DNA from: a virus
Strand: one strand, 5' to 3'
IMG/VR virus record: IMGVR_UViG_3300047548_000785
Location: 3,700-67,699 of that record
Length of the DNA: 64,000 bases
In this document: positions 3,082 to 41,292 of the stretch, piece after piece
Layout: each line of letters starts with the position of its first letter
How positions within the stretch are numbered: the stretch's first letter is position 1
The notes under the pieces: generated by a model
Databases searched by the model: none
Told to the model about the DNA's origin: nothing
What the model saw: only the letters and a program-made list of their open reading frames with translations
Made by a program: the position numbers and the translations under genes

Positions 3082-3198
3082 TATATATCTATATACCTTA
3101 TATCTTAATATCTTAGTTTGCTAGGTATTCTTCTTTCTTATATTATTAATATTATACACATAAGTTCATCTTCTTGATACAAAAAATAGATATTTTTA

Positions 3199-3391: not shown

Positions 3392-3484
3392 ATGGCTACT
3401 AAGTCAAATAAAAGAGACAACATGAATACGCCTGATGATGAATGGCTACCTGTTGGATATGATGCAGAAGAGGTCAACAAATGA
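3392..3484 (+). CDS. 30-aa peptide overlapping the endolysin start (ATGA)
   Basis: MATKSNKRDNMNTPDDEWLPVGYDAEEVNK; AGGAAG/GGA upstream; its stop overlaps the ATG at 3481. Confidence 0.5.
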   Translation: MATKSNKRDNMNTPDDEWLPVGYDAEEVNK

Positions 3485-5620: not shown

Positions 5621-5638
5621 ATCTGTTATAATTAAAAT

Positions 5639-22100: not shown

Positions 22101-23394
22101 TAATATTTCATACCCAAATATTCACAAATATTTAGAGGGCATTTATGATACAGAAAATTCAGTTGTTAAAACATTTGTGTCTTTCGACTATATGCAAGAT
22201 GACGCATCAATTGACATTGTTGGATATACAGATGGCAATAATGAGCCAAGACTAACTAGGCTCGAACCTGCACCTAGCTCTAATGTTATTACACCAGGAT
22301 CAAACTGGGCAGAAACATTGTATGAAATTACTAATGATACAGTTATTTATCCACCATCAGATACCGACTTTAACGACCTAGCTTTGGTATTGCATGTTGA
22401 AGTTATTTCAAATGGCATTATGGAGAGTCCAGTAGAAATTGAGTCTTTGCAAATAGCATCAACTGCACTTAATTCGTTTGTGCCAAATCCGGTGGGTACT
22501 AAAAATGGAAAAGAAATCTTCCCCTACCTACGCTCTTCTGGTTACTTTGACTATAAGGGTAAAAACCCATACTCAATCTATAAAGGAACGTCTCCATACC
22601 TTTACCTCACAGGTAATAGCGGAATTAAACTACTTGACTTTAAAGAAAATGCCATTGATAGAGGAATCAGTATTCCAATTAATACTGAAAAAACACCATA
22701 CTATAAGTTATCCGCCATTCAGCTTTCAGCTAGATATGATGCTGAAACTTTTCCAAATAGAGTTGTTGAAGTCATGGAAGTTGAAAGCAAAGAAGGAACC
22801 TTTAAAATTTATATGGCTCCAGAAGATGGTAGAGGAACGCGAGCAAGATTGTACCCAGTTGATGCACAAACTGGACTACCATATAATAATCTAGTTTTCT
22901 TTGTTAATGGCATACCAGTAACAGAGGCAATTGTTGAGATCAATTCCTGGTTTATGATAGCAATTGTGTTTAATTCTGCATTAGACTTTAGCTCAGCTAG
23001 TGGTGCTATTCGAATGACTGGACCACTCCTATTCAATAATCTTAGTTACTACAAAACTAGAGAAAGTGACGAGGTTAATAGGTCTACATACCGTAAATGG
23101 TTTGGTGTCTCTGTTATCGATGGTGAAGGAGTGCCTTGGGATTACTGGAAGAGTGGGGTACCAGAAATTGGTGTGCCGCAATCAGAATGGGCAATTCAAC
23201 CATTTACGTGGAGAACAGTGCTTTATGCAACACTTCTTCCATCCGCCGCTGTTGACGGAGAAACGCTTTATCGTAAGTTTACGGGTACCAATAGGTTTAC
23301 AGTAGACACAGACAGCCTACTTCGTATTCGTAACTATAAGTATTCTGCTTATAACGCTACTGGGTGGCAAACAAAAGTTACTTCACCTGTATAA
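13180..23394 (+). CDS. Giant virion protein, 3404 aa: FN3, two putative Ig (He_PIG-like), nine CBM4/9-like modules, LamG-like region
   Basis: LPSGLSISSSTGAITGTPT-type Ig repeats; nine NxxxN(P/S) and nine Y(F/Y)(D/N)G motifs; TLELWLKI LamG-like segment; RBS AGGAG. Confidence 0.85.
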   Translation: MAIITYLSNNSTPDSGSSWASSNVYSLWYPNVAVAAAHDGTFPIYVNYAALKIRSNVSSPALITSLLLKNNTSTWLSDNSPTAPYSTTTTSEIGFGFSDVVFLNTDGSLKVEVNSSAPPSLYFNTASVTGAAIKNATTDATIFSDKTIFGYLNYIAVPSSPGITNISNITNDGFSFKVSVPSFTGGESINGYRIQIATDTAFTQNLQTQDISYDGTNTTVNVTGKNPNTRYYIRAFAKNPLWSFAGKGSQWSNTATVQTAIYLPTFSDSSIVSSAYTGLSYSDQVTATSSALAGSITYAATGLPSGLSISSSTGAITGTPTTVGNSAITFTATNTDGQTVSPTRYLFITDSATLWFGPNLLDTAKTGLNYTANVYAFNATSYSVSTGQLPSGISLNTTTGEISGKTYDIGSFTFDITANISTDGGSGSITKTFTMTSEKSNVSAGLVSTPSNLYAERVYAEQPLALWSMDENVDYISKISENQRDMAQNWDVLNGDAAEFSDVTFTPPMASMINMVTVPDYEESPDAVLEATNLVTNPSMETGGASGIVIRENLIQNPTMDGIVPSSSQSIATNLATNPNMVTTSGTTTIRENLLANPSFEKVANGTDIVRSNLISNPSFELNTSGWTNLANTLLSRVPDNSIVGSYVAKLEATAGGTGSNFFAANTGSALNLVDPDKTYTFSVYVKSTTAKTIGIRHAWVDASQNVIGSINTFSATSLSANTWTRISTTQTAPENAYRVSVGVIGSASESWAPGDIIYIDGAMLEDSLVATTYFDGSLQDSLSEYYSWTETEHNSPSIQTAQLVTTLTNIAPNPNMAETDGVVDVKRNHANNPVAKYVGGSVDPAKQVSRTNLVANSSFETVTIGWQAIGTATLAPDGGQFFDGLSSAKLTCLAVGDGIEQVLGERPTVSPNTPYTLSVYVKGEAGKKAILLLDWFDASDTYISQVSSSSYTMTGDWQRMYFFGAISPNNAVTASINVRNLTSGAHTFYLDAVLFESSRILEPYFNGNTTDQLGFEYVWADIENNSVSRQLSEQIVIKENKIYNPSFENGFFGWSDVGINFYGFELSSDVAPGLSTKSLQVIAGANSGLKNLGIQALPSTQYTFSAWIKGPAGKTSILGVRYYDSSMTELSSPFPNFSSSIPFTGDWQRAYFTFTSPANTAYVEPEIQVQDISLTTFYVDDVMLEEGSTLNNYYDGNSVPSEGLRYKWSDEINDSTSIMYALPAKGFDCSGTQSIMYASNDATTESFARYYATSTHNNIIEVGAVSGLAIGTQYLFKAQVRSSTSRTFDYLIGANGQVSVALVPYTWKEVNMLYTVSATNTNVQLTLPSMVAGETFDIKEVLVEKTSGFSRPYFDGDFVSTDSDLTYGWRGEPHDSNSVLLGAKVYGVADDNGLDIRAFRSEAWSANGTRSLRIINYGGFNNDGITIASVDQTTYGSLNIPQLLPGKTYTVKAVARLNGTVSGSTYSRSICFATGSTIVSYVQAPNTIGTHELSLTFTVPADSTNHRIFLTSSGYNNPYNYDMWWDKLLIVRGEYDGLYFDGDTANEEDRYYSWAGEPSKSVSYRQGLGLYGWTGVNAAPVYELGHSRSGTASAFMRVSDNVEYPRMTSDNVPVLSGFSYSASAYMQLASDTNSRISIDWKDSAGVLISRSETSIATSPTGRISVSGVAPDGATQASVSLGFDDGTIASTQLSFDDVLFEQSPTINSYFDGDSLSVDGLSEGTIDWSGDDHASSSTVIEAGINDFSSILGKTSTYSISSVDFSGGKAARVFLRSSSQTDIAVNTVNTTEGNTYTLLIKARANSRSQIVYPQISGDVGDPVLLQQGVWTEIRMIGTAVTGATETVGLRLLNSMGHQFGDTIDIDYAMVVDGEYYNGYFDGSISNSELDGTVSWFGTPNNSISTLSGPEIYFWNGYNGGIVSSSSTVSNDSGYSALVLTSASDEGITSSPMPTVIGEPYTFSAYIYVKKQENVTIQIDEASRQVVVQPNTWTRVSHSRIASSTTHTVRLLLANGGGIMFVDNALFEKGSSVLSYFDGETTNPDADLEYDWSGTAHQSSSTLSGTAVAGYTNNGSVALIQSSVWDSTGSKSMRMVSLSKSNESGTSGALYNISTLTNGKKYTAMVKYRLTSPLVGDKNPEYLTLRAANSSGTTVVRTSNGSNTTGVHELKLVFTKTSEITAIHLSSGVGSGAGTVWWDDFLIVEGEYNGTYFDGDSVDSEVIGENVFEWTGTPHASASTKSILQTSLLTTMVSPSLGSVEDFNAEMESIAFSAWIYPFARIIDAYIGYRYTDVNGIDIEHIQKFDINQQDTWSLISYSFKLPTQFTNLRMVIKTLVALPTKTPTTDSYKFLVHGMTAGQWSESFFTRSLGATVQELTDEIAVSGTGVFANAYGLQRNNGYYMAYDNRLAARNTGIPMVYGATNSTKITPAPTAGDPSFVFPGLGFMNASGQYANLTLELWLKIQSSATQPRRILGPVAEGSTDGLYVNDGLLVLKVGESFDSYFIKEWDRPMLVAIKLKGDSALLSINGEEVISLTLDPSQVEFPTEFITIDNVIKKQDFIGIYAYEDVPSIEIDCIGIYPYIVPDIVEKRRFVYGQGVDVPEAIVGSGSDSTVTIDYPVANYAKNYLYPDIGRWNQGINENLEINNTSISSPTYELPTLFFSNESESSWYSDIESIQVSGLEPFINLKPNVLYDEAVSVWDNTEAYILFDSISTLSQDLEAFYGIFMPNYSAGVKQTLFFIEDEESSNYFEIFINEDNEIVYELAVANSDTAGGYDKEVIYTYQSEESTMIPVGINIDSFANTYGGNVLDFFGKVSTLKFYVAGSRFLENTFDGNIVSVGFCTARNLQKILSLFNTNGTIMTLEDYESDVRLYDGGNVVTTIWEATVDAGNTFFGSSSSGFISIVDGGSPFGILTTAAQRHTASYTLLPKNYLGKFMLDIATNGYWQDHVPLGYFGKYVNAGDGTEYYELDFLQFNISYPNIHKYLEGIYDTENSVVKTFVSFDYMQDDASIDIVGYTDGNNEPRLTRLEPAPSSNVITPGSNWAETLYEITNDTVIYPPSDTDFNDLALVLHVEVISNGIMESPVEIESLQIASTALNSFVPNPVGTKNGKEIFPYLRSSGYFDYKGKNPYSIYKGTSPYLYLTGNSGIKLLDFKENAIDRGISIPINTEKTPYYKLSAIQLSARYDAETFPNRVVEVMEVESKEGTFKIYMAPEDGRGTRARLYPVDAQTGLPYNNLVFFVNGIPVTEAIVEINSWFMIAIVFNSALDFSSASGAIRMTGPLLFNNLSYYKTRESDEVNRSTYRKWFGVSVIDGEGVPWDYWKSGVPEIGVPQSEWAIQPFTWRTVLYATLLPSAAVDGETLYRKFTGTNRFTVDTDSLLRIRNYKYSAYNATGWQTKVTSPV

Positions 23395-23412: not shown

Positions 23413-23793
23413 ATGGACAAAATAATGAAGGGCCAAATTGGTAAAACTAAGATTCAGGTTATTGAAGAACCTTTCTCTAATGCAGGCTTATATATATGGG
23501 TAAAGCCAGATGGTAAGGCTTTTACTGGTGGAAATAATGACCCACTTTGTATTGAGTCAATGCGAGGAGATCAGTCTAAGATTGACGAACTAACAAAAGC
23601 TGCTGCCTATTATGGACAACCAGAAGGTCAGGCAGTGTTTTTCCCAAATCAAAGAATGGTTAGTGACGAAACACATAGCGAACAGGTTGATCGTATGGTT
23701 AACGGATTAATACCATCTGAAAATGACCTTGGTGCACTAATTGCAGCTAAAAAGACTATTGAGACATATGGAGCTGATGCATATAATGCATAA
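23413..23793 (+). CDS. Hypothetical protein upstream of the portal
   Basis: ORF track 23407..23793; ATG 23413 is 7 nt after TGGTATACT, so it is the likelier start. Confidence 0.75.
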   Translation: MDKIMKGQIGKTKIQVIEEPFSNAGLYIWVKPDGKAFTGGNNDPLCIESMRGDQSKIDELTKAAAYYGQPEGQAVFFPNQRMVSDETHSEQVDRMVNGLIPSENDLGALIAAKKTIETYGADAYNA

Positions 23794-25390
23794 TGACGGA
23801 TTAACTAGACTTGAAATTCCACTTAAATTGGATGACGTTATTGATGATGATACCAATAAGATTCTCGATCCATTTAATAAAACATGGGATGAAATTAAAG
23901 ATTACCATGGCCTAGACGTTAACTTTAAACGACGCAATACCAGAATCGCAAAAGCAGAGGCATCAGAAGCCTATCTAGATTCAGCTAGTGCAATTGACAG
24001 CGGTATTGATGGAGCCAAGTCTAAAAAGCTTAACCCAGGAGCTGTATATCGTAATGCTTATGGTATTTTTGATATCATTACACCACCCTATGATGTTTAT
24101 CAGCTTGCTGGATACTATGACACTTCCTTTGCTAATCACGCAGCTATTGACGCTAAGGTAGAAAACACTGTCGGACTAGGATATGATTTTACCGTTTCCG
24201 ATAAGACGATGCTAAAGCTTGAAATGAGTGAAAATAAAACTGCAGTTGAAAAGGCTAGAAAACGTATTGAACGTTTAAAAGTAGAACTCAGGGACTGGCT
24301 TGAAAGCCTTAATCAAGACGAGAGTTTTACAAGCATTATGGAAAAGGTTTACACAGATGTTCATTCTGTAGGAAATGGCTATATTGAAGTTGGTCGTAAA
24401 ATTAATGGAGAGATTGGATATATTGGTCATATCCCAGCAACAACTGTTCGTGTACGTCGCCTACATGATGGTTTTGTTCAAATGATTTCTAATAAAGTAG
24501 TTTACTTTAGAAATTTTGGGGCATCTAATCCAAACCCAATCACACAAGATCCACGTCCTAATGAGATAATCCACATTAAGGAATACTCTCCTCTTAATAC
24601 TTTTTACGGTGTACCAGATGTTATTGCTGCCATGCCTTCACTTCTGGGTGACGCACTTGCATCACAATATAACATTGATTATTTTGGTAACAAGGCAGTT
24701 CCTAGATATGTTGTTACACTAAAGGGTGCATCACTTTCTACAGAAGCAGAAGATAAACTATTTAAGTTTTTGCAAACCAACCTTAAGGGTCAATCCCACA
24801 GAACATTGTACATTCCTTTGCCAGGAGACTCTGACACCAATAAGGTTGAGTTTAAGATGGAACCGATTGAAAACGGTGTACAAGAAGGATCATTCCACAA
24901 CTATCGCCAACAGGTCCGTGATGATATTCTGATTGCCCATCAAGTACCATTATCTAAACTTGGTGGATCTGATTCTTCAGCAATTGCAGCTTCTTTAGCT
25001 CAAGATCGTACATTTAAGGAACAGGTTGCAAGGCCTGCACAGCGTAATTTGGAAAAAATTCTTAATAAGATTATTCGTGAAAAGACAGACATTCTAGATT
25101 TCAAGTTTAATGAGCTTACATTGACAGACGAAAATGTACAATCACAAATTCTAGAACGCTATGTACGTAATAAGATTATGGTTCCCAACGAAGCTCGTGA
25201 AGCAATTAACTTGCCACAACGTCCAGATGGTGACGAGCCAATGGAGATGTCTTCAAGACAAGCAGCAGATGCAACTGCAAACCAAATGCAAACACGTGAA
25301 CGTGATGCTGAAAGGTCTGCCAACCAATCTGATGGGGATGCCACTGTAGAAGGTCGCAATGCCCAGGGCGAGGGTCCTGCATCATCTTAA
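23786..25390 (+). CDS. Portal protein
   Basis: GNGYIEV, EIIHIKEY...YGVP, YFGNKAVP, AHQVP, MVPNEARE..NLP motifs. Start uncertain (track gives 23741). Confidence 0.92.
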   Translation: MHNDGLTRLEIPLKLDDVIDDDTNKILDPFNKTWDEIKDYHGLDVNFKRRNTRIAKAEASEAYLDSASAIDSGIDGAKSKKLNPGAVYRNAYGIFDIITPPYDVYQLAGYYDTSFANHAAIDAKVENTVGLGYDFTVSDKTMLKLEMSENKTAVEKARKRIERLKVELRDWLESLNQDESFTSIMEKVYTDVHSVGNGYIEVGRKINGEIGYIGHIPATTVRVRRLHDGFVQMISNKVVYFRNFGASNPNPITQDPRPNEIIHIKEYSPLNTFYGVPDVIAAMPSLLGDALASQYNIDYFGNKAVPRYVVTLKGASLSTEAEDKLFKFLQTNLKGQSHRTLYIPLPGDSDTNKVEFKMEPIENGVQEGSFHNYRQQVRDDILIAHQVPLSKLGGSDSSAIAASLAQDRTFKEQVARPAQRNLEKILNKIIREKTDILDFKFNELTLTDENVQSQILERYVRNKIMVPNEAREAINLPQRPDGDEPMEMSSRQAADATANQMQTRERDAERSANQSDGDATVEGRNAQGEGPASS

Positions 25391-26735: not shown

Positions 26736-26764
26736 AAAATTAAAATCACTGGGAGGTGAAATAT

Positions 26765-27877
26765 ATGTCGGAAGAAATCATTAAAAATATTCCTGGTACA
26801 GGCGGAGCTTATCCAAACAGCGATGGGCAGGTTGCATCAGGTGGTATTGGTGGTGTTTCAGATCCAGCTTTCCCATTCGTAGGTAACAACACTCCTGCGG
26901 AGGCTGAGTATGGTCTAACAAGCGGTCCAAACGCCGTTAACCCATCATTTACCGAGAACCCACGATACGAAGGTGCTGGTATCCTACGTCCTGAACAGGC
27001 TCGTCGTTTTATCGACTACGTCTGGGACGCTACCACACTCGCTAACGATGGTCGTCGCGTGACTATGCGTGCAAACACTATGGAACTTGAAAAGGTTAAC
27101 GTAGGTGAGCGTGTTGTTCGTGCTGCTAACCAGGGTGATGCATCATTCACAAATGCTGGTGCAACATTCAGCAAGATTGAGCTTACAACTAAGAAGCTAC
27201 GTCTTGACTGGGAAGTATCATCTGAAGCTCTCGAAGACAATATTGAAGGAGGTGCTCTTGAGGACCACTTGGTTCGTCTCATGACCACCGCTTTCGGTAA
27301 TGACATCGAGGACCTTGCTATTAACGGTGACACAGCACAGAGCGGAGATCCATTCCTTGGAATCATGGACGGATTCATTGCTCGCAACCAGAACGATGGC
27401 TACTCTCACGAGGCAGTTGTCGATCAGGCTGATGCTAACTGGACAGTTCACGACATGCAGAAGCTAGTTCTAGCTATGCCACGTCGTTACCGTGCACTCC
27501 AGACAGGACTTAAGTTCTATGCTGGAACTGACACATTCGCTAACATTGTCAAGAACAATGGTACAGTCTTCGACTCAATCGGTTCAACCGAAGCAGCTCG
27601 TGGATCATACCTTGGTGGTGTAGACCAGACAATTGGTGGAGCACGTCAAACTCGTGTACTTGGTATTCCAGTTCTCGAAGTTCCTTACTACCCTGCGGAC
27701 TATGTAGACCTTACATTCCCACAGAACCGTATTTGGGGCTTCCAGCGTGATATCACAGTTAACCGTTTCTACGTTCCTAAAAAGGACACAATCGAATACA
27801 CCGTATTCGTTCGATTCGGAATTAACTGGGAAGAGCAGGATGCAATCGCTTGGGCAACTAAGCCAGTAGCTTCCTAA
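26765..27877 (+). CDS. Major capsid protein (HK97 fold)
   Basis: GILRPEQARRFID, EVSSEALEDNIEG, DLAINGD...DGFI, VLGIPVLEVP; GGAGGTGA RBS; follows the protease. Confidence 0.93.
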   Translation: MSEEIIKNIPGTGGAYPNSDGQVASGGIGGVSDPAFPFVGNNTPAEAEYGLTSGPNAVNPSFTENPRYEGAGILRPEQARRFIDYVWDATTLANDGRRVTMRANTMELEKVNVGERVVRAANQGDASFTNAGATFSKIELTTKKLRLDWEVSSEALEDNIEGGALEDHLVRLMTTAFGNDIEDLAINGDTAQSGDPFLGIMDGFIARNQNDGYSHEAVVDQADANWTVHDMQKLVLAMPRRYRALQTGLKFYAGTDTFANIVKNNGTVFDSIGSTEAARGSYLGGVDQTIGGARQTRVLGIPVLEVPYYPADYVDLTFPQNRIWGFQRDITVNRFYVPKKDTIEYTVFVRFGINWEEQDAIAWATKPVAS

Positions 27878-30745: not shown

Positions 30746-30818
30746 TTGTAATAAACGGCTGATATAATTAAAGCGAGGAAACACGCCCATTAATCCATAG
30801 AAAAATGAGGTGAAAAAT

Positions 30819-31469
30819 ATGGCATATTCAAGAGGTTCAAGCACTAACATTATCGTCGGTGCAGCTGCTCTATTTACTTATGAGGGCGGAGAGCTATCAG
30901 ATGCAGATCTTCCAGATCTCGCAACTACTGATGCCAGTCGTTCAGCGAGAGAAGCACTCACTGACGACGCAGCATTCCGTAACGTAGGTTACACATCAAA
31001 CGGTCTCGAACTACAATTCCAGCCTGACTTCGGTGAGGTTAGCGTTGACCAGATTCTCGACGTTGCAAAACTCTTCAAGCAAGGTATGCAGGTTAACCTA
31101 AATACCGCGTTTGCAGAAGCAACACTTGAGAACTTGCTTTTCGCAATCGCTGGTTCAGACAGCCAACTTTACACAGGTACAGGTAACCAATGGGGTGGCG
31201 AGCAGGTCCTAGACCTAACCGCTGGTAATATTGGTGAATGTCCAGTAGAGCGTGGTCTTGTTGCAGTTGGTCCAGGTACAGGTGACTGTGCACTAGGATC
31301 CAGCATCGAGCGTATCTATGTAGCATACCGTGCACTTTCAATTGAAAGCGTTACTGTATCTGCAAAGCGTGACGAAGCAACAATGTTTGAGGTATCCTTC
31401 CGTCTACTACCAAATGACGCAGGATCCTACGGTAAGATTGTTGACCGCACTATCACTCCTGCATCCTAG
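30819..31469 (+). CDS. Major tail (tube) protein
   Basis: NIIVGAA, VGYTSNGLEL, VDQ, AEATLENL; GAGGTGA RBS; followed by a terminator. Confidence 0.88.
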   Translation: MAYSRGSSTNIIVGAAALFTYEGGELSDADLPDLATTDASRSAREALTDDAAFRNVGYTSNGLELQFQPDFGEVSVDQILDVAKLFKQGMQVNLNTAFAEATLENLLFAIAGSDSQLYTGTGNQWGGEQVLDLTAGNIGECPVERGLVAVGPGTGDCALGSSIERIYVAYRALSIESVTVSAKRDEATMFEVSFRLLPNDAGSYGKIVDRTITPAS

Positions 31470-31499: not shown

Positions 31500-31531
31500 G
31501 GCCTAGGCATAAACTCCTAGGCCTTTCTGTT
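31500..31531 (+). terminator. Terminator after the major tail gene
   Basis: GGCCTAGG-N8-CCTAGGCC followed by TTTCTGTT. Confidence 0.7.
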
Positions 31532-31545
31532 GCTATAATAGAATG

Positions 31546-32235
31546 ATGGCAACTAAAGTTTATGAAACAAAATATATTACATTATTAGATAATGCTTCTA
31601 TTTGTTTGACACCATTAAAAATAAAATATTTAAGAGAATTCATGGTAGAGTTTGAAAAACTTAGAGATGCCACATCTAATGAAGAGACTATCGAACAACT
31701 AGCTTATTGTGCTTTAATATGTATGAAACAGTTTAGGCCAGACATTGTTTCCTTAGAACAACTTGAAGACATTACCGATATAGAATTGCTTTATGACATT
31801 ATTGAGTTTTCTGCTGGTGTTAAACTTAGACAGCAACCAGAGATAAAGGAAGAGTCAGAATCAAAAGAACAAGAAGGTGATGTTTGGGAATCGCTAGATC
31901 TTGCCAAATTAGAGGCAGAAGTTTTTATTTTGGGTATATGGAAAGATTACGACGAGCTAGAAACATCACTGTCAATGCCCGAATTAGTAACAACGTTGAG
32001 TGCAAGACGAGAACTAGATTATGAAGAAAAGAAATTCTTAGCCGCCATGCAGGGGGTAGATCTTGACAAGAGTTCTGGTAAAGAAGAAAAGAATGCCTGG
32101 GAGGAAATGAAGGCAAGAGTGTTTAGTAACGGACAGGCAGCCAGCTCAGACGACGTTCTTGCTTTACAGGGTGTTAATGCTCAAAAAGCTGGTTTTGGTA
32201 TTGGAATGGGCCTTGACTACCAAAAAATTAGCTAA
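31546..32235 (+). CDS. Tail assembly chaperone, long (GT-like) form
   Basis: First ~95 aa align with 32288..32605; C-terminal extension with W...ELE..LSMPEL. Confidence 0.75.
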   Translation: MATKVYETKYITLLDNASICLTPLKIKYLREFMVEFEKLRDATSNEETIEQLAYCALICMKQFRPDIVSLEQLEDITDIELLYDIIEFSAGVKLRQQPEIKEESESKEQEGDVWESLDLAKLEAEVFILGIWKDYDELETSLSMPELVTTLSARRELDYEEKKFLAAMQGVDLDKSSGKEEKNAWEEMKARVFSNGQAASSDDVLALQGVNAQKAGFGIGMGLDYQKIS

Positions 32236-32287
32236 TTTAATAATGTCTTGTGTTATAATTGAATGAAACCTTTAAAGGAGGAAGTAA

Positions 32288-32605
32288 ATGGCAACAAATG
32301 TCAACGAACCAGTTACCGTCGAATTGATTGATGGAACAACTGTACAAATCAGACCGCTAAAAATTTCACTACTTAAATCATTTATGAATAAGTTTGGTGA
32401 CATTGCCGCTGTCGCAGAAAATAATGATAAGTCAATGGAAATTCTTATGGAGTGTGTTCAAATCGCTATGAGACAATATAAGCCAGAAATCGCTGAAGAT
32501 CTTAAAGCTCTTGAAGACAATCTTGATCTTCCAACAGTTTACAAAATCATTGAAGGTGCCGCTGGCGTGAAGCTCTCTGATGTTTCTAGCTCAATCATGG
32601 CATAA
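32288..32605 (+). CDS. Tail assembly chaperone, short (G-like) form
   Basis: Directly before the tape measure; AAAGGAGG RBS; paralog of the previous N-terminus. Confidence 0.78.
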   Translation: MATNVNEPVTVELIDGTTVQIRPLKISLLKSFMNKFGDIAAVAENNDKSMEILMECVQIAMRQYKPEIAEDLKALEDNLDLPTVYKIIEGAAGVKLSDVSSSIMA

Positions 32606-32631: not shown

Positions 32632-35600
32632 ATGAGTGATATTGAATCCAATATTAATATTAATATTGACACCAGCAATGCTTTAGCAAATCTAAAAGCA
32701 TTACAGAGACAAATATCGCTCTTTCATACCTCCATGGCTAAAGGTGGTGCAGCCACCAATGCCGAGCTTGCTAGATTGCAGCAAAATCTTATCAATGGTA
32801 TTAACGCCACTGGTAACTTTGCTGCATCTATGCAAACTGTTCGTACCACCACCGAAACATTTACCAATGCATTAGAAAAGAACAAACTCTCGATGGGAGA
32901 GTATTTTAGATATGCTGGTAGTCAGGTAGGTGGCTTTAGACGACTATTCTCTAGCGAATTTGACACAATTGAAAAGGTAGCTAGAGAAAGAGTTAAAACA
33001 CTACAAACTCAATATATTAAGATGGGGCGTGATGCCAATGGTGCTATGCAGGCCATTGCTGTCAGGCCCCTATCTCTTGATATGCAAAATCTGGGAACAC
33101 AAACAGCAATCGCTGCCCAAAAACAACAAATCTTCAACCAGTTAATCAAACAAGGTTCTACAAACCTTCTTAACTTTGGTAAGAACACTCAGTGGGCTGG
33201 TCGCCAGCTTATGGTTGGTTTTACTATTCCATTATCAATTTTTGGTGCCACGGCTGCTCGTGAGTTTATGAAGATTGAGGAACAAACCCTTAAGTTCCAA
33301 AGAGTTTATGGCGACATGTCTACGCCAATCGAAGAAACTAATAAGATGGCCGATGCTATCAAGAACCTTTCTGGCGAATTTACACAGTATGGTATTGCTG
33401 TCGAAAAGACAATGGGGCTGGCTGCAGATATTGCTGCTATGGGTGAGCAAGGTGAAGATCTTCTTGCGTCTGTTCAAGAAACAACCAGACTATCAGTTCT
33501 TGGTGGGGTAGAGCAACAACAAGCACTAGAAGCTGTTACATCACTAACCAATGCATTTGGTGTATCTACTGAACAACTATCTGGAAAAATTAACTTTTTA
33601 AACTCTGTTGAAAACCAAACAATTACATCTATTGAAGATTTAACAGAGGCTATTCCCAAGGCTGGTCCAGTTGTACAACAGCTTGGTGGAGACCTTGAAG
33701 ATCTAACATTCTTCCTCACTGCTATGCGTGAGGGTGGAATTAATGCGTCAGAATCTGCCAACGCTCTCAAATCTGGTTTAGCATCTATGATTAACCCAAC
33801 CCAAGAGGCAAAAGATATGCTTATGGGACTTGGCATTAATCTAGAAGCAATTGTTAATGCAAATAGAGGAAACCCGTCTGCCTTTGTTGTTCAGTTTGCA
33901 CAAGCACTTGATACCCTAGATCCAACAGATAGAGCAAGAGCAATTGAACAGCTATTTGGTAAATTCCAGTTTGCTCGTATGTCTACACTATTCCAAAACG
34001 TAATTGCCGAGGGTAGCCAGGCACAAAGAGTTCTTGGACTTACTCAAGCCACTGCAGAAGAATTAGCAGTACTTGCAGATAGAGAAATGAAGCGTATTTC
34101 AGAATCTCCAATGTATAAGTTTAAAAAAGCTTGGGAGGATATGAAAGCTGCTCTGGCACCAGTTGGTGAGCAATTCCTTAAGGCTATTACTCCAATTATT
34201 GAATTTGGAACACAAATTTTAAATAAGTTTAACGAAATGAATGATGGTGCAAAAAGCTTTGTCATCATCTTAACTACAGCAGTAGCTGGAATTGGGCCAG
34301 TGCTACTGATGACATTTGGTTTGATAGCCAACGGTGTTGCAAACATTATTAAAGCTTTTGCTGCAATGAGCAATTTCTTTAATAGAGCTGGAAATTCTTC
34401 ACAAGTACTTGGTGAACAAACTAACTACATGACTCAGCAACAACTAGAGGCTGCGGCAGTAGCAGCATCTCTAAATCAAACGCACACTCAGCTAACTCAA
34501 ACATTTACATCAGAAGCCAGTGCTGTTAAGAGATTGTCTGCAGAGTATGAAAGGGCCGTTGCGGCCCAAGCTTTAATGCGTGGCCCAATCGTTTCTGGAG
34601 GCACCACTAAACGACCTAAGAAATACGCTAAGGGTGTTACGATGGTTCCAGGCAATGGCAATCGTGATACTGAGCCAGCAATGCTTACACCTGGAGAAGC
34701 AGTTATTCCAGCACCCATGGTTGAAAAATATGGTCCACTAATTGAGGGTATGATTGCAGGTTCGATTCCTGGCTATAACGGTGGCACTATGTCTGTAGGG
34801 CAAGCCAAGGATATCTCTGGACTTTATAGAGCACCAAGTGCCATTAAAGCACAAACACAAAAGATTGTCTGGGACACTCTAGAAGCAGAAATTAAGGCTA
34901 TTGAAGCTGCAGTTAAGGGTGCACCAGGAGTAACACAGTCAAAGATTAATAACCTCACACAAAAACAAGCTTCTCACATTGCACCAGATATTCAGCAAAT
35001 GCAAGCAGGTGGTCAAAACATTAATGTTAAAAATTGGAAGGCTGGAAACCTACAGGCTGATCTTGGTGGAATAAATAACTACCTTAATTCACTTGGTGAA
35101 AATTCTAAAGTCCTTGAAAACTTTAAGTCCTCACATATTGATGTTGCTGCCAAAGAACTGGGTATGTCTATGGCTGAAGTTGAAAAAGAATTAGATCTGT
35201 TAAAAAAGGGTATCCACCCAACTACCCGATCTGCTGGTAAGGTTTTGCAAAGGGTTGCAGCAACAGATCCTGGATACCAAGGCAAAGCTGTTAGTGCGGC
35301 AATGGGCGAAAGACTCAAGGGAAACTACTATGAAACATTAGCACAAAGATCATATGATCCTAAAAAAGATGAAGTTGTAGCTAAACAGGTTAAAACAAGA
35401 ATTGTTAAAATGCAAACCCTTTTGAATAATGCTGTAAGCGAGGGTGTCAATGAAGCTGCACAAAGTAAATCTCCGTCTCAACGTGCCAAAAAAGCTGGTA
35501 AAAATATTTCTGACGGAACAATTATTGGCATTAACGAGGGCATAGATGATGCTAAACGAGCAGGTCAGCGTATTGGTATGGCAGCAACAAGTGGTATGGT

Positions 35601-38600
35601 GTCAGCCACTGGGGTTGCTGCTGGTGCTCAAACGGTAGACGAAAATGGTAACGTTATCATGGCTGGTGGAAGCCAGGCAGATCAAGATGACGACAAAAAG
35701 AAAAAGCCTAGATCTAAGTTTAGCAAAATGGCAGGTAAAGCAAGTGCTGCAGGTTTTATTGCAACGGGGGCAGTTTCAGCAGCATCTATGGCAGGAGGAC
35801 CTGTTGGAGATATAGCAGGACAGTTATCTGGACCTCTTATGGCAATTTCATCCGTAGGATCTTTGTTCACCATGATGCCTCCACAAATTGCTGCAGTTGT
35901 TGCCGCTATAGCATTACTAGTTATTGCAGCAACAGCATTGGTTGATGCATTTAATAAGTCTAGGGATGCAGCGATTGAACAGGTTAAAGCTACACAAGCT
36001 AGCAAAAAGTCGCTACAAGATTTTGCTGAGTTTAGCGGTAAGGCTACAGCAGGTGAGATTAGGGACAAGCAGCGAGAAGCACAAATGGCTACTCCTGGAT
36101 TGGGAACAGGACAAAATACATTTGGTGCCAGCTTCCTTGAAAGTGATCCAGGAAAGGCTATGGCTCAAAGTGTTCAGGATGCACTTAAAAAGGGCGGTAG
36201 AGAGGCTGCTCAATCAGACTTAACAAATCAATTAGCTAATGCTGTATCCAGTGGAGTACTAACAGCTTTAGAGGCAAAGTCTATAGCAGCCAACATTGCT
36301 GGTGAACTAAAAGATCTTGATTTTGGTATTTCCGTAAACGGTAAGCTAGATGAACTACTTGGTCCAAATGGTGAAAACCTAAAGAATGATCCAATTAACG
36401 TTAGATTAAAAATTCAAGAACAAAGTAGGCGAGAGATGCAAAAAGCTCTTAACGACCTCACTCTTGATGGCCTTATCGAAGATGTGGATAAAGTTGCACT
36501 AGGACTTTCATTAACACCATTTGCTCCAACCCAAATTACAGGTTCAATCATGCTTTTAGTTGGCCAAATTGAAAGATTGGGTAGAGTTGGCGGTGCAGCC
36601 GCAGCACAAATGCAAACCATGTTTGAGGTTACCCAGGAACAGGTTGACGCACTTGAGCTTGATTATCAAAAGAGAATTGAAATTGCTAGAGCTGCAGGAA
36701 ATATAACTAACGCACAAGAACTTGAGTTAGAGCTTATGCAAGCTAAGAATAAGCTCATACAAGAACAGTCAGAAGCAACAGCAGAACTTCAGATGGCATA
36801 TCAAAGTGCTGGGTTTATGCAACAAGGAGCCATGACAAGCGGTGCAATTAAGTCTGTAGAAATGGCATATAAGGGTACTCCAGAAGAAGAGCTTGCAAAA
36901 CAAGCTAAGGATGCCATTATTAATCAGCAGGGTATTGGAAACTCTATGGAGTTTATCCTTCTTGGAAAACTTGCTACCAAGGATATTTCACCAGTACAAT
37001 TCATCACCTTGATGGAAGACTTTAAAGACCCTCAAAATCTTAACAAGGTTCTTAATACTTTGGTTAACCTCGATGCTGCATCTGCAGATCAGGTTATGTA
37101 TCTGATGGAACAGTTTGGTGATAATGAAGAAGTTAAGATGAAGTTTAATACCATGATCACAACTGATGCTAATGGTAAACCATTAACTGCTGCAGAGACT
37201 CAAGAATATATTGAGCAATTTGCGAATATTAGTCAACTGCAAAACGTTGTAGACGTAAAAGCAGTTATGACATTCTATGTAGAAAATCCAGAAAAATTTG
37301 ATCAGGTTCAGTCAAAAATTGATGCACTGAATGAAATGCCAGATGCAAACTTTACAGCATATGCTAATGCGGTTGGCCTAGAAGAACTTGCTGGAATGAA
37401 CGATCTTGCTGCTCAATTTAGTAGCTTACCAGCATCTGAATCTAAAGATTTTGTTAGTAATGTTTTAACTATATATGAAACTAGAGGAACCCCAGCATTC
37501 CAGAAAAACTTAGCAGCACAAAATGCAGCAGGATTTAAAGGTGGTAAGGGTACGGCCATGGACTTTGCTATTGCATCCGCCACAAAGTCTACAAATGAAG
37601 CTATACGTGCTAGAAACGCAGCTAAAACAGCTAAGTTTAACGAAGAAATGGCTGCCTACAATGAATCTGGTGGCGGCGGCGGTGGCGGCGGCGGTGGCGG
37701 AGAGCCTATCAAGGTCAAGACTTTGGACAATATTCTTAAGAAAATGCGAGACCTCCGATCTATAACTACTGCTGTAACAGATGGATGGAATGCTTCTCGT
37801 AATGCTTTGGACGGCATGTTCGGTAGTGGTGTTGCAGGATTTAATGGTTTGCAAAATCAAATGCGTAAACTCGGTGCAGGAGAAGACCTGATTAGCCTAA
37901 TTGCAGGTATGGATCCAGAAGAGTATGAACGTCGCAAGAATGAACTATTTAACTTTGATGCGTCTGGAAACATTACTAGCTTTAAGCAGGGCTTGGCATC
38001 AATCGCTGCTGGTTTAAGAGCAATTGCACTTGGAGAATTTAACAATAAGCAAGAAGCTACAATTAAATCGTTTAATGATCAAAACGTTGCAATTAAAAAA
38101 TTGGTTGCTAACGGAATGAGTTATGCAGATGCTTTAAAGGTTGTAGAAGATACAGAACTTGCGGCAGCAATTGCTCGTGAGGGTAACAATGAAACAATTA
38201 AAGAACTTATCAAGAATACAGAAAAGGCTACAGAGGCAACCAAGGCTCTTGCAGCTGCTCAAGCTGTTGCTGGTCAAAACAAGGACTACGTAAACCAACA
38301 AAAACTTTTAGCTTCACTACAAGAAAATCCACTAGGACTTAACAGTGATGCAATTAGTGCAATCCTAGAAGACTCAAACCTTCAAACCCTATATCAAGAC
38401 CTTTTAAGTAACCCAAGTGTAGATCCACAAATTCTAGAAGACGCACTAAATAATGCAATGAATAAGGCCGATACTCAGCTAGCTATTGATAAGTTAACTT
38501 TGCCAGGAATGGAAAAGATTTTTAACGATGGATTTAATAAGGCAATGGAAGCCTTCTCAGCACAAGAAGAAGCAATTACCCTTGAATTTAATATCAAGAA

Positions 38601-41292
38601 AAAACCTTTCGAAGATGCTATTCGTTTGGCACAGCAGTCTATTGAAGACTTACAGAGTGCACCTGGTGGTCTTGATGATTTGAGTGCTGAACTAGAACGT
38701 ATTGGTAACGAAGAAGCCGATATTAACAAGATTTACGAAGAAAGACAAAAAGCTCTTGATGAAATTGCTGCTGCCAATGAAGACATTATTGAACTACAAC
38801 GAGGCCAGCTAAGTGTTGCCGATGCACTTTCTCAGGGTGACATTGCTGCAGCAGCACGAGCTGCACAGGAATTGCGTGCTAAGCAAGCATCACAGTCAAT
38901 TTCTAAGCAGGGTGACCAACTTGAAAAGAGTCGTAGAGCTGAGATTGACAAGCTTACTGGTAAAAATGGTTTAAATAGAGAACAAATTGAAGAGCGTATT
39001 CGTAAAATTAAAGAACAGATTTTGGCAATTGAAGAAGATCAACTTGAACCAGCACAATATCAACTCACATTGCTTGAACGTCAAGAACAAAGCCAGATTG
39101 ATTCACTAACTGTTTTGGGTAAAACTAAAGAAGAGTGGATGAAAATTAAGAACAATATTGATCTTGCCAGAACTAGTAGCGATAAGTACAAGAAGGCTAT
39201 GAACGAGGCATTGGGTGTTGTACAAGATATTGTTACAGAATGGGGAGCTATTGATTCTAAGGAAGTTAAACTAGACTTTAAGTGGAACCCTCTTAATACC
39301 CCAGAGTCCACTATTGGTTCACAGGGTCCAGGGGCAGAACAAACTACCCCAGGAAGTTCGGGTAGTGCTGGAGATGGACCTCCAGTAGAACCAAACCTAG
39401 AAGAAGAATTAACTGGAGACGAACTATTCAGTATAGATAATTGGTTTGAGGATATTACCGAAAGTGGTTGGTGGAAGAGCCTTGTTGCTATTAAAGAAAC
39501 CATTGATGAACTTATTCTTAAACCACTTGGAGAAGGTTTTAAGGTTCTTTGGGAAAATATTTCAACCTGGTGGAACGAAACCGTAGTTCCAATCTGGAAT
39601 GACTTGGCTGAAGCCTTCTTTGCCTCACCAATCGGCCAATTTGTAACATGGTTTGATACAAATATTGTTCAGCCAATTATTGCACTAATAAAGCCATTGG
39701 TAGACTGGTTCTTTGCAGATGACAGTATTGAAAATAAAAAAGCTGACATTATGAGATTCCTCTATGACATACAGCTAAAATTCCTAGACTTTGGAATTAA
39801 GCTTGTAGACTCTATTATGCCAATTGCTCAAGGCTTTGACTTGCTATTTGGAACTAATCATGCCGAAAAGCTTGCAGGCTGGAAAGAGCAAGCAGTTTCT
39901 GATATGGATGAAGTTAAGAAGAAAATGGAAGAGCTTCCTATTGCAGGAGCAGGAGCTTTTGACAAACTTAAAGAAAACTTTGCAACCTTTGAGGCTTCAG
40001 CTGCAGGTGGTTTAGAATCTATCAAAGCTAACATTTCAAGCTTGCCTGCAGACACTCAGGCGGCCATTCTGGAGGAACTACCTAAAAACTTTGCTTCTGC
40101 TGCAGAGTGGGCAAATGTGGATATTGGATTAATTGAAGAAAAAATTAAAGGTTTGCCAATTGAAACACAAAATGCTATTAAAACTGAGCTACTAAATAAC
40201 TTTACAGAGTTTAGTAAGTTGGCAAACGAAGAACTTAAAATTACAGAGCAAGCTCTTAATAATTTGCCACAAGCAACAGAAGATGCAATTCGCAGTAAGT
40301 TACCAGCAAACTTTACTACATTTAGAGAACTAGCCAATACAGATATTCAGGCTGTTGTAAGTGCAATGAACTTAATGCCAGAAAGTACTAGAAATGCTAT
40401 TGCTCAGACACTACCTGCTAATTTTGCGGAAATGGCAAGCAAAGCAGGAGTAGATATTAGTGGTATTGAAACAGCAATTAGTGGAATTCCAGATAAGACT
40501 AAAACTGCTATAACCGTTGGTCTTCCACAAAACTTTAACACATTTAGAAATTCTGCTAACGGTGATGTGCTTTCGGTAAGTGAAGGCCTTAAGGGAATAC
40601 CAGCACAAACTAAGGCTCCATTAGAAGTAGATCTAGCAAAACAGTTTGCAGCTACATCAGCAAAAGCTCAAGCAGATATGTTGGGTGTGCAAAATAAGGT
40701 AAAAGAAATTCCAGGCAGCCTCAGCTCAAGCATGGCCAGTGTAGGTTCTAGTGGTGGAGCTGGTTTTAAAGGTGCCGTTAATAAAATTTTTGATGACATG
40801 AGAAACTTTTCTGTCATGGGCTTTAAACCATTTGCTGGATTACCAAGACTATATGCTAAGGGTGGTATTGTTCCGGGACGGGGAAACAAAGATACAGAGT
40901 CTGCACTTCTAACTCCTGGAGAGTTTGTTATTCGCAAAGACATTGTTTCTCGATATGGTAAAGAATTCTTTGATAACATTAACCGTGGTCAGCTGGCAAT
41001 GAGTCAGGTAACTGGAAACATGCCCACTAAAGCTCAAATTGATCAAGCTTTTAACAGGCAGATCGGTCTTGGTCAAATGCGAGGCCCAAAATTTGATACT
41101 AAAGATATTAAACCAGGAACAATTAAGGATGTTCAACCACAGAGAGCAATGAGCATGGATTCAGTGTATAATAATACATATAGCATTAATGTTAATGCTG
41201 GTGGAAATGCTAATCCTAATGATATTGCAAATGCAGTAATGAGAGAAATCAAGAGGGTAGACGACCAAAGAATTAGGGGAAATAGATTCTAA
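32632..41292 (+). CDS. Tape measure protein, 2886 aa
   Basis: Very long Ala/Gln/Lys-rich helical ORF after the chaperones; TP901-like core (GINASESANALKS); DTxxAxLTPGExVI motifs. Confidence 0.95.
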   Translation: MSDIESNININIDTSNALANLKALQRQISLFHTSMAKGGAATNAELARLQQNLINGINATGNFAASMQTVRTTTETFTNALEKNKLSMGEYFRYAGSQVGGFRRLFSSEFDTIEKVARERVKTLQTQYIKMGRDANGAMQAIAVRPLSLDMQNLGTQTAIAAQKQQIFNQLIKQGSTNLLNFGKNTQWAGRQLMVGFTIPLSIFGATAAREFMKIEEQTLKFQRVYGDMSTPIEETNKMADAIKNLSGEFTQYGIAVEKTMGLAADIAAMGEQGEDLLASVQETTRLSVLGGVEQQQALEAVTSLTNAFGVSTEQLSGKINFLNSVENQTITSIEDLTEAIPKAGPVVQQLGGDLEDLTFFLTAMREGGINASESANALKSGLASMINPTQEAKDMLMGLGINLEAIVNANRGNPSAFVVQFAQALDTLDPTDRARAIEQLFGKFQFARMSTLFQNVIAEGSQAQRVLGLTQATAEELAVLADREMKRISESPMYKFKKAWEDMKAALAPVGEQFLKAITPIIEFGTQILNKFNEMNDGAKSFVIILTTAVAGIGPVLLMTFGLIANGVANIIKAFAAMSNFFNRAGNSSQVLGEQTNYMTQQQLEAAAVAASLNQTHTQLTQTFTSEASAVKRLSAEYERAVAAQALMRGPIVSGGTTKRPKKYAKGVTMVPGNGNRDTEPAMLTPGEAVIPAPMVEKYGPLIEGMIAGSIPGYNGGTMSVGQAKDISGLYRAPSAIKAQTQKIVWDTLEAEIKAIEAAVKGAPGVTQSKINNLTQKQASHIAPDIQQMQAGGQNINVKNWKAGNLQADLGGINNYLNSLGENSKVLENFKSSHIDVAAKELGMSMAEVEKELDLLKKGIHPTTRSAGKVLQRVAATDPGYQGKAVSAAMGERLKGNYYETLAQRSYDPKKDEVVAKQVKTRIVKMQTLLNNAVSEGVNEAAQSKSPSQRAKKAGKNISDGTIIGINEGIDDAKRAGQRIGMAATSGMVSATGVAAGAQTVDENGNVIMAGGSQADQDDDKKKKPRSKFSKMAGKASAAGFIATGAVSAASMAGGPVGDIAGQLSGPLMAISSVGSLFTMMPPQIAAVVAAIALLVIAATALVDAFNKSRDAAIEQVKATQASKKSLQDFAEFSGKATAGEIRDKQREAQMATPGLGTGQNTFGASFLESDPGKAMAQSVQDALKKGGREAAQSDLTNQLANAVSSGVLTALEAKSIAANIAGELKDLDFGISVNGKLDELLGPNGENLKNDPINVRLKIQEQSRREMQKALNDLTLDGLIEDVDKVALGLSLTPFAPTQITGSIMLLVGQIERLGRVGGAAAAQMQTMFEVTQEQVDALELDYQKRIEIARAAGNITNAQELELELMQAKNKLIQEQSEATAELQMAYQSAGFMQQGAMTSGAIKSVEMAYKGTPEEELAKQAKDAIINQQGIGNSMEFILLGKLATKDISPVQFITLMEDFKDPQNLNKVLNTLVNLDAASADQVMYLMEQFGDNEEVKMKFNTMITTDANGKPLTAAETQEYIEQFANISQLQNVVDVKAVMTFYVENPEKFDQVQSKIDALNEMPDANFTAYANAVGLEELAGMNDLAAQFSSLPASESKDFVSNVLTIYETRGTPAFQKNLAAQNAAGFKGGKGTAMDFAIASATKSTNEAIRARNAAKTAKFNEEMAAYNESGGGGGGGGGGGEPIKVKTLDNILKKMRDLRSITTAVTDGWNASRNALDGMFGSGVAGFNGLQNQMRKLGAGEDLISLIAGMDPEEYERRKNELFNFDASGNITSFKQGLASIAAGLRAIALGEFNNKQEATIKSFNDQNVAIKKLVANGMSYADALKVVEDTELAAAIAREGNNETIKELIKNTEKATEATKALAAAQAVAGQNKDYVNQQKLLASLQENPLGLNSDAISAILEDSNLQTLYQDLLSNPSVDPQILEDALNNAMNKADTQLAIDKLTLPGMEKIFNDGFNKAMEAFSAQEEAITLEFNIKKKPFEDAIRLAQQSIEDLQSAPGGLDDLSAELERIGNEEADINKIYEERQKALDEIAAANEDIIELQRGQLSVADALSQGDIAAAARAAQELRAKQASQSISKQGDQLEKSRRAEIDKLTGKNGLNREQIEERIRKIKEQILAIEEDQLEPAQYQLTLLERQEQSQIDSLTVLGKTKEEWMKIKNNIDLARTSSDKYKKAMNEALGVVQDIVTEWGAIDSKEVKLDFKWNPLNTPESTIGSQGPGAEQTTPGSSGSAGDGPPVEPNLEEELTGDELFSIDNWFEDITESGWWKSLVAIKETIDELILKPLGEGFKVLWENISTWWNETVVPIWNDLAEAFFASPIGQFVTWFDTNIVQPIIALIKPLVDWFFADDSIENKKADIMRFLYDIQLKFLDFGIKLVDSIMPIAQGFDLLFGTNHAEKLAGWKEQAVSDMDEVKKKMEELPIAGAGAFDKLKENFATFEASAAGGLESIKANISSLPADTQAAILEELPKNFASAAEWANVDIGLIEEKIKGLPIETQNAIKTELLNNFTEFSKLANEELKITEQALNNLPQATEDAIRSKLPANFTTFRELANTDIQAVVSAMNLMPESTRNAIAQTLPANFAEMASKAGVDISGIETAISGIPDKTKTAITVGLPQNFNTFRNSANGDVLSVSEGLKGIPAQTKAPLEVDLAKQFAATSAKAQADMLGVQNKVKEIPGSLSSSMASVGSSGGAGFKGAVNKIFDDMRNFSVMGFKPFAGLPRLYAKGGIVPGRGNKDTESALLTPGEFVIRKDIVSRYGKEFFDNINRGQLAMSQVTGNMPTKAQIDQAFNRQIGLGQMRGPKFDTKDIKPGTIKDVQPQRAMSMDSVYNNTYSINVNAGGNANPNDIANAVMREIKRVDDQRIRGNRF
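40042..40707 (+). repeat. Six tandem 37-aa repeats in the tape measure
   Basis: (L/I/M)PxxTxxAIxxxLPxNFxxxxxxAxxD at an exact 111-nt period. Confidence 0.85.

Follow-up and report, generated by a model that had tools for sequence, protein, structure and literature searches.

The frameshift that joins the tail assembly chaperone genes G and T is among the most conserved recoding events, and it is usually explained as a device that ties two proteins to a fixed ratio. The locus analysed here raises the question of whether, and by what means, a phage could provide the same two products, the short G and the long G-T, from two separate genes. It lies on the forward strand of a 64-kb stretch of DNA (hereafter, the window) that is part of the 67.7-kb IMG/VR virus record IMGVR_UViG_3300047548_000785, the estimated completeness of which is 63%, and it consists of two genes located between those for the tube protein and the tape measure protein. 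The initial annotation of this DNA, made from the sequence alone, proposed that these genes encode a G/G-T pair by paralogy instead of a frameshift. This proposal is supported by annotated homologues in cultured phages, by matches to PHROG families and by conservation of the arrangement in 151 of 161 sources. Accordingly, the two genes most likely encode the tail assembly chaperones of a long-tailed, siphovirus-like phage that are made from separate genes, with no frameshift and at a ratio that is probably set at initiation (we put the probability of this reading at about 0.78). The parts of the pair are the following:

31546-32235, forward strand: predicted long chaperone gene (hard-wired G-T), 229 amino acids (aa) from ATG 31546, or 230 aa from the in-frame ATG 31543
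31546-31830, forward strand: G-like N-terminal domain of the long protein (41% identity to the short protein; phrog_10504, E 3e-16)
31831-31884, forward strand: acidic/lysine-rich linker of the long protein, poorly conserved, at the position where relatives shift frame (alignment A1)
31885-32232, forward strand: T domain of the long protein, its best conserved part (phrog_10474, E 5e-15)
32288-32605, forward strand: predicted short chaperone gene (G only), 105 aa (open reading frame (ORF) list, BLASTP, phrog_10504)

The paralogy of the two genes is borne out by BLASTP, which aligns residues 2-95 of the long protein with residues 1-96 of the short one (39 identities in 96 positions, or 41%; E 3e-20). 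Beyond the shared region, where the short protein ends, the long protein runs on in the same frame for about 134 aa, close to the 135 aa estimated previously; in general, the initial annotation described the sequence correctly at every point checked, and the features lie where it had placed them. Both copies retain the motifs PLKI..L..F, C....M.QY.P and LED..D...Y.I.E.A.G.K. In the PHROGs database, residues 2-111 of the long protein match phrog_10504 and residues 132-209 match phrog_10474, with the E-values given above, and the short protein matches phrog_10504 only (E 3e-20); both families carry the label 'unknown function'. G and T of the long gene form one open frame, so that the programmed frameshift that characterizes a G/G-T pair is absent. 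No in-frame slippery heptamer is present at the G/T junction of the long gene or anywhere in the short gene; the sole in-frame heptamer of the long gene, TTTGGGT, is found at codon 129, inside T. Invariant columns are distributed unevenly, with 10 in about 96 positions of the long G domain, 39 in about 116 positions of T and 36 in the 105 positions of the short protein; 39 of the 49 invariant columns of the long-protein alignment (A1) thus fall in the T domain.

The link to chaperones comes from cultured phages. A tblastn search of 50,697 phage records with the long protein yielded 130 matching records (127 from Streptomyces phages and three from Rhodococcus phages; best E 1e-31), and in all 40 records among the matches listed, the match consists of two pieces. 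The coding sequences (CDSs) under these matches are annotated as 'tail assembly chaperone' or, in some cases, as 'hypothetical protein'; two records carry no annotation. The chaperones of Streptomyces phages of the Stanwilliamsviridae (Coruscant gp60/61, Faust gp37/38, TunaTartare gp36/37 and Francob gp36/37) are true homologues of both domains, with 35-44% identity over 80-90% of the long protein, and are encoded between the same flanking genes, those for an Ig-domain major tail protein and a very long tape measure protein. Unlike the window, these phages carry a single G gene; T overlaps its end in the -1 frame, the annotation joins the two as one CDS, and there is no second G, given that the tape measure gene starts 3-105 nucleotides (nt) after T. 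In Coruscant and Faust, a G ORF of 114-115 aa is followed by a T ORF in the -1 frame that is open throughout the final 12-20 codons of G; with the tape measure gene beginning right after T, no room is left for a second G; in TunaTartare and Francob, the CDS is a joined (j2) one, the form in which annotators enter a frameshift product. Because these homologues are annotated, frameshift-joined chaperones, the genes in the window correspond by homology to a canonical G/G-T locus, except that T is in frame with G.

The arrangement in the window is shared by nearly all of the relatives scanned. Two sets of IMG/VR loci were assembled, namely the best 80 of 154 confirmed loci found with the long protein and the best 80 of at least 590 loci found with a profile of distant T-only ORFs; together with the window, these make 161 sources, in which all three forward frames were scanned with profile hidden Markov models of G and T. 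A fused G-T gene followed by a complete second G is present in 151 of the 161 sources. In five more, the fused gene is followed by a partial second G, which is cut by the end of the locus or, in the locus L125, split over two frames, and in three the locus ends less than 400 nt after T; in only two, L090 and L156, do G and T occupy different frames, and these lack a second G. When surveyed for the fused, frameshifted and duplicated states distinguished in the initial annotation, the relatives thus overwhelmingly show the fused gene with a full second G, and two are of the frameshift type. Contigs from metagenome-assembled genomes (MAGs) encode the fused protein and the second G in five of five cases. 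Among non-redundant proteins, the long protein has 6595 matches at E <= 1e-3, with lengths of 126-403 aa (224-240 aa for the best 120), and the short protein has 1688, with lengths of 57-184 aa. The split short G of L125 (L125:2872-3161) represents either a sequencing indel or a decaying copy, and in one of the MAG contigs (L169:1231-1881) the long gene is parted from the short one by about 650 nt of extra DNA. In many JGI records, the short homologue goes under the name 'inhibitor of KinA sporulation pathway (predicted exonuclease)', which looks like a propagated misannotation.

At a broader scale, a T-domain profile search of 1.84 billion representatives yielded 383 clusters at E <= 1e-3, and upon rescanning of the best 150 of these, nine contained both G and T and 141 contained T only. 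The latter have a median length of 95 aa (range 49-217), and the six that are longer than 135 aa have N-termini unrecognised by the G model. Judged by clusters at 50%, most of the family is thus in the split form, with the fused form as a populous minority; a T-only ORF alone is no proof of a frameshift.

The two sister loci without a second G, L090 and L156, are in the canonical state. They encode the same tube protein, the same start of the tape measure protein and a T domain that is 65-76% identical to that of the duplicated loci, and their G is 54% identical to the short copies; they differ from the duplicated loci in having a single G, with T in the -1 frame at CCCAAAY and no second G. 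In both loci, the single G ends in '...DPN...' and the T frame, which opens straight after a stop codon, starts at GAC CCA AAC in L090 and at GAC CCA AAT in L156. The slippery sites CCCAAAC and CCCAAAT, which are canonical X XXY YYZ heptamers, are thus located exactly at the opening of the T frame, and Faust has GAC CCA AAT at the matching place. In Coruscant (L001:2780-2850), the corresponding sequence is GAC CCG GAA, with no canonical heptamer. In L090, an ORF with repeated C..C......C.KHYRRLLKHG motifs is present 3' of T (at approximately 2830-3130) and is possibly a homing-endonuclease-like insert.

The putative regulatory elements around the two genes in the window are the following:

31500-31530, forward strand: terminator-like hairpin (GGCCTAGG...CCTAGGCC) at 31500-31523, then a T-rich tail, TTTCTGTT (folding)
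31531-31539, forward strand: putative promoter P1, extended -10 box TGCTATAAT, ahead of the long gene (pattern search)
32251-32259, forward strand: putative promoter P2, consensus extended -10 box TGTTATAAT, ahead of the short gene (pattern search)
32274-32281, forward strand: Shine-Dalgarno sequence AAAGGAGG, 6 nt ahead of ATG 32288

The initial annotation had placed the long gene behind a terminator, with a leaderless-type start, and had assigned to the short gene its own -10 box. All these features are present, and we infer from their sequences and from their conservation in relatives that the hairpin, the boxes and the start act as a terminator, promoters and a leaderless start, respectively. 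The 91-nt hairpin region folds better than 200 of 200 shuffled sequences (z -3.8), and a hairpin of at least 8 pairs is predicted at the same place in 41 of 41 unique relatives folded, with several differing stems and TTTCTGTTT-like tails. The P1 hexamer ends 6 nt before ATG 31546, which has no Shine-Dalgarno sequence, so that the ATG begins 7 nt after the hexamer; this is the usual distance of the transcription start.

The asymmetry between the two genes is conserved, as indicated by comparison of 80 unique upstream regions of long genes and 100 unique upstream regions of short genes. Long genes are preceded in 79 of 80 cases by a TG-extended TANNNT hexamer whose end lies 6 nt upstream of the start in 41 cases, 7 nt in 14, 8 nt in 6 and 9 nt in 18; of these hexamers, TATACT accounts for 29, TAGAAT for 23, TAAAAT for 17, TATAAT for 8 and TAAACT for 2. 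None of the 80 regions contains GGAG, GAGG or AGGA in its last 20 nt. Upstream of the short genes, TGNTATAAT is found in 98 of 100 regions, and GGAGG is located within 20 nt of the ATG in 90, with GGAG or GAGG in nine more. Thus, the consensus extended -10 box accompanies 98 of 100 short genes versus 8 of 80 long genes, and a Shine-Dalgarno-like motif 99 of 100 versus none of 80. The layout of the short gene in the window recurs at the single G gene of L090, where a terminator hairpin and TGCTATAAT are followed by some 30 nt of leader and by AAAGGAG. No terminator-like site was found between the long, short and tape measure genes; therefore, read-through from the tube promoter and transcripts from P1 would carry the short gene as well.

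Starts of the leaderless type seem to be a habit of this phage. The window contains 11 TGNTATAAT sites versus 5.2 expected (5 of 100 shuffles reach 11), several of them just upstream of genes, and in three of these sites ATG or GTG follows exactly 6 nt after the hexamer, versus 0.49 expected. The further sites with an ATG 6 nt on are at 5624-5641 on the forward strand, ahead of a gene at 5639-6328, and at 1524-1541 on the reverse strand, ahead of a minus-strand start at 1526, which suggests that these two genes are leaderless as well. A duplicated promoter motif common to both promoters, TATAATNGAATGA, was considered and is not significant (two matches, equalled in 20 of 100 shuffles). In read-through RNA, the -10 region could pair with the start codon of the long gene (window 31529-31553; GUUGCUAU / AUGGCAAC). 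Such a hairpin, with a 5-bp stem, is predicted in 26 of the 41 unique relatives, without a shuffled control, and is not used as evidence here; it may help to silence translation from read-through RNA or may be due to chance.

How such a pair might function can be outlined by analogy with phage lambda. In lambda, gpG is made together with the rare gpGT at a ratio of about 30:1; each of them binds the tape measure protein, and binding to the tube protein is the task of the T part, according to the relevant passage of Atkins et al. 2016 (PMC5009743), which summarises Levin 1993 and Xu 2004, 2013 and 2014 and describes the G-T frameshift as widely conserved 'except T4'. The pair in the window resembles gpG and gpGT in its position between the tube and tape measure genes, in the N-terminal domain that both forms share and in the C-terminal T extension of the longer form; the presumed roles, with G coating the tape measure and T recruiting the tube protein, would be the same. 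It differs in that lambda relies on a frameshift whereas here T is in frame with its own G domain and the short form comes from a second gene. Moreover, the identity between the short product and the G part of the long one is only about 41%, which means that the two 'G' modules have ceased to be one and the same polypeptide. No similarity in sequence to lambda G was found, in searches that were not aimed at it.

In lambda and in the cultured Streptomyces relatives, one locus yields, through a -1 frameshift, abundant G and rare G-T. In the lineage of the window, G-T would be hard-wired as the single in-frame gene 31546-32235 and the G-only paralogue 32288-32605 would supply the short form, so that recoding is not needed. 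By analogy with lambda, the short protein would coat the 2886-aa tape measure protein, and a few copies of the long protein would join the tape measure via the G domain and recruit the tube protein via the T domain. The ratio of short to long would probably be set at initiation: the long gene, located behind the terminator of the tube gene, would be transcribed from a mostly non-consensus extended -10 promoter starting at the A of its ATG, that is, without a leader, and would offer no Shine-Dalgarno sequence on read-through transcripts, and the short gene would rely on its consensus extended -10 box and strong Shine-Dalgarno sequence. Every transcript that crosses the long gene would also cover the short gene, and therefore the short message would never be rarer than the long one. 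This design would give at least as much short as long RNA and, probably, much more short than long protein, which fits the conserved asymmetry of promoters and Shine-Dalgarno sequences.

Protein structure prediction is broadly consistent with the chaperone assignment. In the AlphaFold2 models of the two proteins, built from alignments of 44 and 37 homologues, the G domain has the same layout, a beta-hairpin followed by four helices. The mean predicted local distance difference test score (pLDDT) of the short-protein model is 74.6; in the long-protein model, the values are 70-84 for the G part, 30-40 for the linker and 41-54 for the T part. A Foldseek search of BFVD with the short model gave as the best match a 'tail assembly chaperone' of an uncultured phage (E 7e-7, template modeling score (TM) 0.77), and a name of this kind, either tail assembly chaperone or pre-tape-measure frameshift protein, recurs in 14 of the 50 rows shown. 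A separate fold search, independent of Foldseek, of 48,161 PDB representatives ranked first YqbN (3klu; Z 5.6, root mean square deviation (rmsd) 4.1, 85 aligned residues), which we take to be a prophage chaperone homologue, and second the HK97 chaperone (2ob9; Z 4.4, rmsd 3.6, 77 aligned). In the comparison with tail assembly chaperones that the initial annotation had put forward as a check, the name of the best BFVD match and the two top PDB ranks point to a chaperone, but the PDB scores are weak. Given that the Z values are low by the search tool's own guidance, the fold is counted as supportive by rank and not as proof. Profile searches of PDB sequences with alignments A1 and A2 returned chance-level rows only (E >= 0.6), and complex prediction for the tube protein with the T domain scored 0.00 in two runs, made without controls, which speaks neither for nor against binding.

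The history of the duplication was addressed with trees of the G and T domains, all from short alignments of about 97-112 columns. In a 100-row tree that comprises 47 loci (from 92, after an 80% identity filter), the two canonical loci and four Streptomyces phages, the short copies and the two canonical G proteins form one group (100/99), and the long G domains fall between this group and the Streptomyces outgroup. In a 38-row tree with 16 hand-picked loci, each of the four groups lies on one side of a branch, and the group of canonical and short G is recovered again (99/95). In the tree of T, L156 is weakly nested in the duplicated clade and L090 is basal. In the approximately unbiased (AU) test, the best tree that unites short and long G is 10.6 log-likelihood units worse (p 0.025), for a group that was named after the tree had been seen and that involves long branches. 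Mean identities agree in outline: canonical G is 54% identical to the short copies and 40% to the long G domains, short and long G are 40% identical to each other, and Streptomyces G is 35-37% identical to each of the other groups. Across the same 47 loci, mean pairwise identity is 66.5% within the short copies and 53% within the long G domains. By these comparisons, the short copy is the conservative one and is similar to the ancestral G, and the G domain of the long copy has diverged faster and is still doing so. The duplication may be younger than the split from L090 and L156, with acceleration of the long copy, or older, with later loss, or recombination may have been involved.

Several observations weigh against the interpretation of the pair as chaperones with a ratio set at initiation. 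In a Pfam scan, neither protein matched any family above the cut-off, Phage_TAC included; the best row was DUF4778, with 19 bits versus a cut-off of 27. Foldseek found nothing in PDB at E <= 0.001 with the short model (the HK97 tail assembly chaperone 2ob9 is at rank 22, E 2.6, TM 0.45), and the PDB matches of the separate fold search are all below Z 6. The G trees place the canonical relatives with the short copies and not outside both copies. Because the long G is only about 40% identical to the short one and evolves faster, lambda-style co-assembly of identical G modules may not carry over to this system. A search of sequencing runs with the window sequence listed five DNA runs, two of them possibly from the source sample, and no RNA run, so that an excess of the short over the long protein is deduced from the signals. 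Furthermore, leaderless mRNAs can be well translated in Actinobacteria, and therefore a leaderless start alone does not mean low output. As for the host, the 63%-complete virus record contains no match to WhiB (PF02467). The window sequence occurs in freshwater metagenomes, and Streptomyces and Rhodococcus are the hosts of the nearest cultured relatives. Of the five MAG contigs, three come from Actinomycetota bins (one Acidimicrobiaceae MAG contains two and a Nanopelagicales MAG the third), and the others are assigned to Flavipsychrobacter and Methylococcus, the binning of phage contigs being weak evidence.

Among the alternatives, the one to be taken most seriously, although it is itself unlikely, is that the paralogues have become subfunctionalised, with the long G specialised, for instance, for one site on the tape measure, the short protein coating the rest, and the ratio of secondary importance. 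The much weaker constraint on the long G, evident both from its few invariant columns (10 in about 96, as opposed to 36 of the short protein's 105 and 39 of about 116 in T) and from its lower pairwise identity across the same loci (53% compared with 66.5%), speaks for such specialisation, as does the long branch that parts the long group from short and canonical G. Nevertheless, both copies have kept the shared motifs, and the conserved asymmetry of promoters and Shine-Dalgarno sequences is a prediction of a dosage design; the two readings are compatible. More doubtful still is the possibility that the G domain of the long gene was acquired by recombination from another phage lineage, so that the pair would be a mosaic with no tandem duplication. 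The long G is about equally distant from Streptomyces G (36% identity) and from short and canonical G (40%) whereas the T of the duplicated loci is, in contrast, 65-76% identical to that of the canonical relatives, and the AU test disfavours a clade of short and long G that excludes canonical G (p 0.025). However, no donor lineage with a long-type G is found among the 383 T-domain clusters or the phage records, the same tree would result from acceleration after duplication if the outgroup exerted long-branch attraction, and the group tested was chosen after the tree had been seen, on only about 97 columns.

It is very unlikely that the two genes encode unrelated small structural or regulatory proteins that happen to precede the tape measure gene. 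The lack of a Pfam match, the PHROG label and the KinA-related name that JGI gives to some short homologues would be compatible with this view, but they are set against homology to annotated, frameshift-joined chaperones of Streptomyces phages, the expected position of the genes and the enrichment of tail assembly chaperone names among the structural neighbours. An artefactual origin of the fused frame, through an indel that sequencing or assembly introduced into a normal frameshift locus, the second G being a decaying remnant, is the least credible of all. A one-base error would indeed join G and T, and the second G of L125 is split over two frames; yet the fused frame is intact in 159 of the 161 independent sources, which come from many metagenomes; 151 of these also have a complete second G, which shows 36 invariant columns, and thousands of database proteins have the fused length.

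The genes that surround the pair form a morphogenetic module in an order that, on the forward strand, reads portal, protease/scaffold, major capsid, four small head-tail genes, major tail protein, long gene, short gene and tape measure; the G+C content of the window is about 39%. The flanking features are the following:

23741-25390, forward strand: portal
26756-27877, forward strand: major capsid
30760-30768, forward strand: extended -10-like box TGATATAAT, a putative promoter element upstream of the major tail protein gene (pattern search)
30819-31469, forward strand: major tail (tube) protein gene, Ig-domain (phrog_2175, E 6e-32)
32632-41292, forward strand: tape measure protein gene, 2886 aa (PF10145 PhageMin_Tail, E 2e-26)

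The ATG of the tube gene at 30819 is preceded by GAGGTG, and the start in the ORF list is GTG 30810; the DNA of this gene is similar to the major tail protein genes of Streptomyces phages. The tape measure protein, at 2886 aa versus roughly 2100 aa in the Streptomyces relatives, implies a very long predicted tail, and includes about eleven glycines in a row near residue 1740. Directly upstream of the portal gene, an ORF of 3404 aa (window 13180-23394, forward strand) encodes three CBM_4_9 carbohydrate-binding domains and He_PIG Ig-like domains; both its size and its location are unusual for a phage protein. A 581-aa protein with Peptidase_M23 and Amidase_2 domains (3481-5226, forward strand) is likely an endolysin or a tail lysin. 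No tRNA genes were found.

The concept of a two-gene chaperone has been published, and the case described here is not the first. Some T4-like phages have one short and one fused long tail assembly chaperone gene with no frameshifting, as stated in the pertinent passage of PMC10885494, citing Vladimirov, Gautam & Davidson 2022 (Virology 566:9). By the definition in that passage, the likeness lies in a short gene plus a longer fused gene, with no recoding. The T4-like phages are a contractile-tailed group whereas the window encodes a siphovirus-type module related to those of actinophages, and given this difference of virus group, an independent origin is likely. The T4-like phages themselves appear to be mixed in this respect, since poly-T slip signals in T4-like TAC-N genes are mentioned in another citing paper, PMC12846349. 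The paper on PRFect, PMC10885494, also notes that the frameshift annotation is absent in about a third of SEA-PHAGES genomes. A full-text literature search found no description of a duplicated, non-frameshift chaperone pair for siphoviruses or actinophages, and the T4-like statement is the sole precedent found. The pair in the window is an independent and very widespread instance in another phage group, which adds to the known concept the retained frameshifting sister loci, the conserved two-promoter layout and the faster-evolving G domain of the long form.

Taken further, and only tentatively, these observations could mean that in a very abundant freshwater clade, duplication and hard-wiring have replaced the frameshift, and the control of stoichiometry has passed from the ribosome to a pair of dedicated promoters, of which that of G-T is weak and leaderless and that of G combines a consensus -10 box with a strong Shine-Dalgarno sequence. 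Given that the CCCAAAY frameshift is still in use in close relatives, such a clade would record the transition itself. The G modules would not need to be identical, and the divergence of the long form would hint at specialisation for a distinct site on the 2886-aa tape measure.

For annotation, the finding is a warning that thousands of metagenomic phages carry a 'G-T' gene without a frameshift along with a second small G that is unnamed or misnamed. Judging from the predicted signals, the case would also illustrate cleanly that gene starts of the leaderless type are conserved in uncultured phages. For the biology of phage tails, natural lineages without the frameshift show that the ratio of G to G-T can be set otherwise, and the frameshifting and duplicated loci, with the same tube, T and tape measure, make up matched pairs for asking what the frameshift buys.

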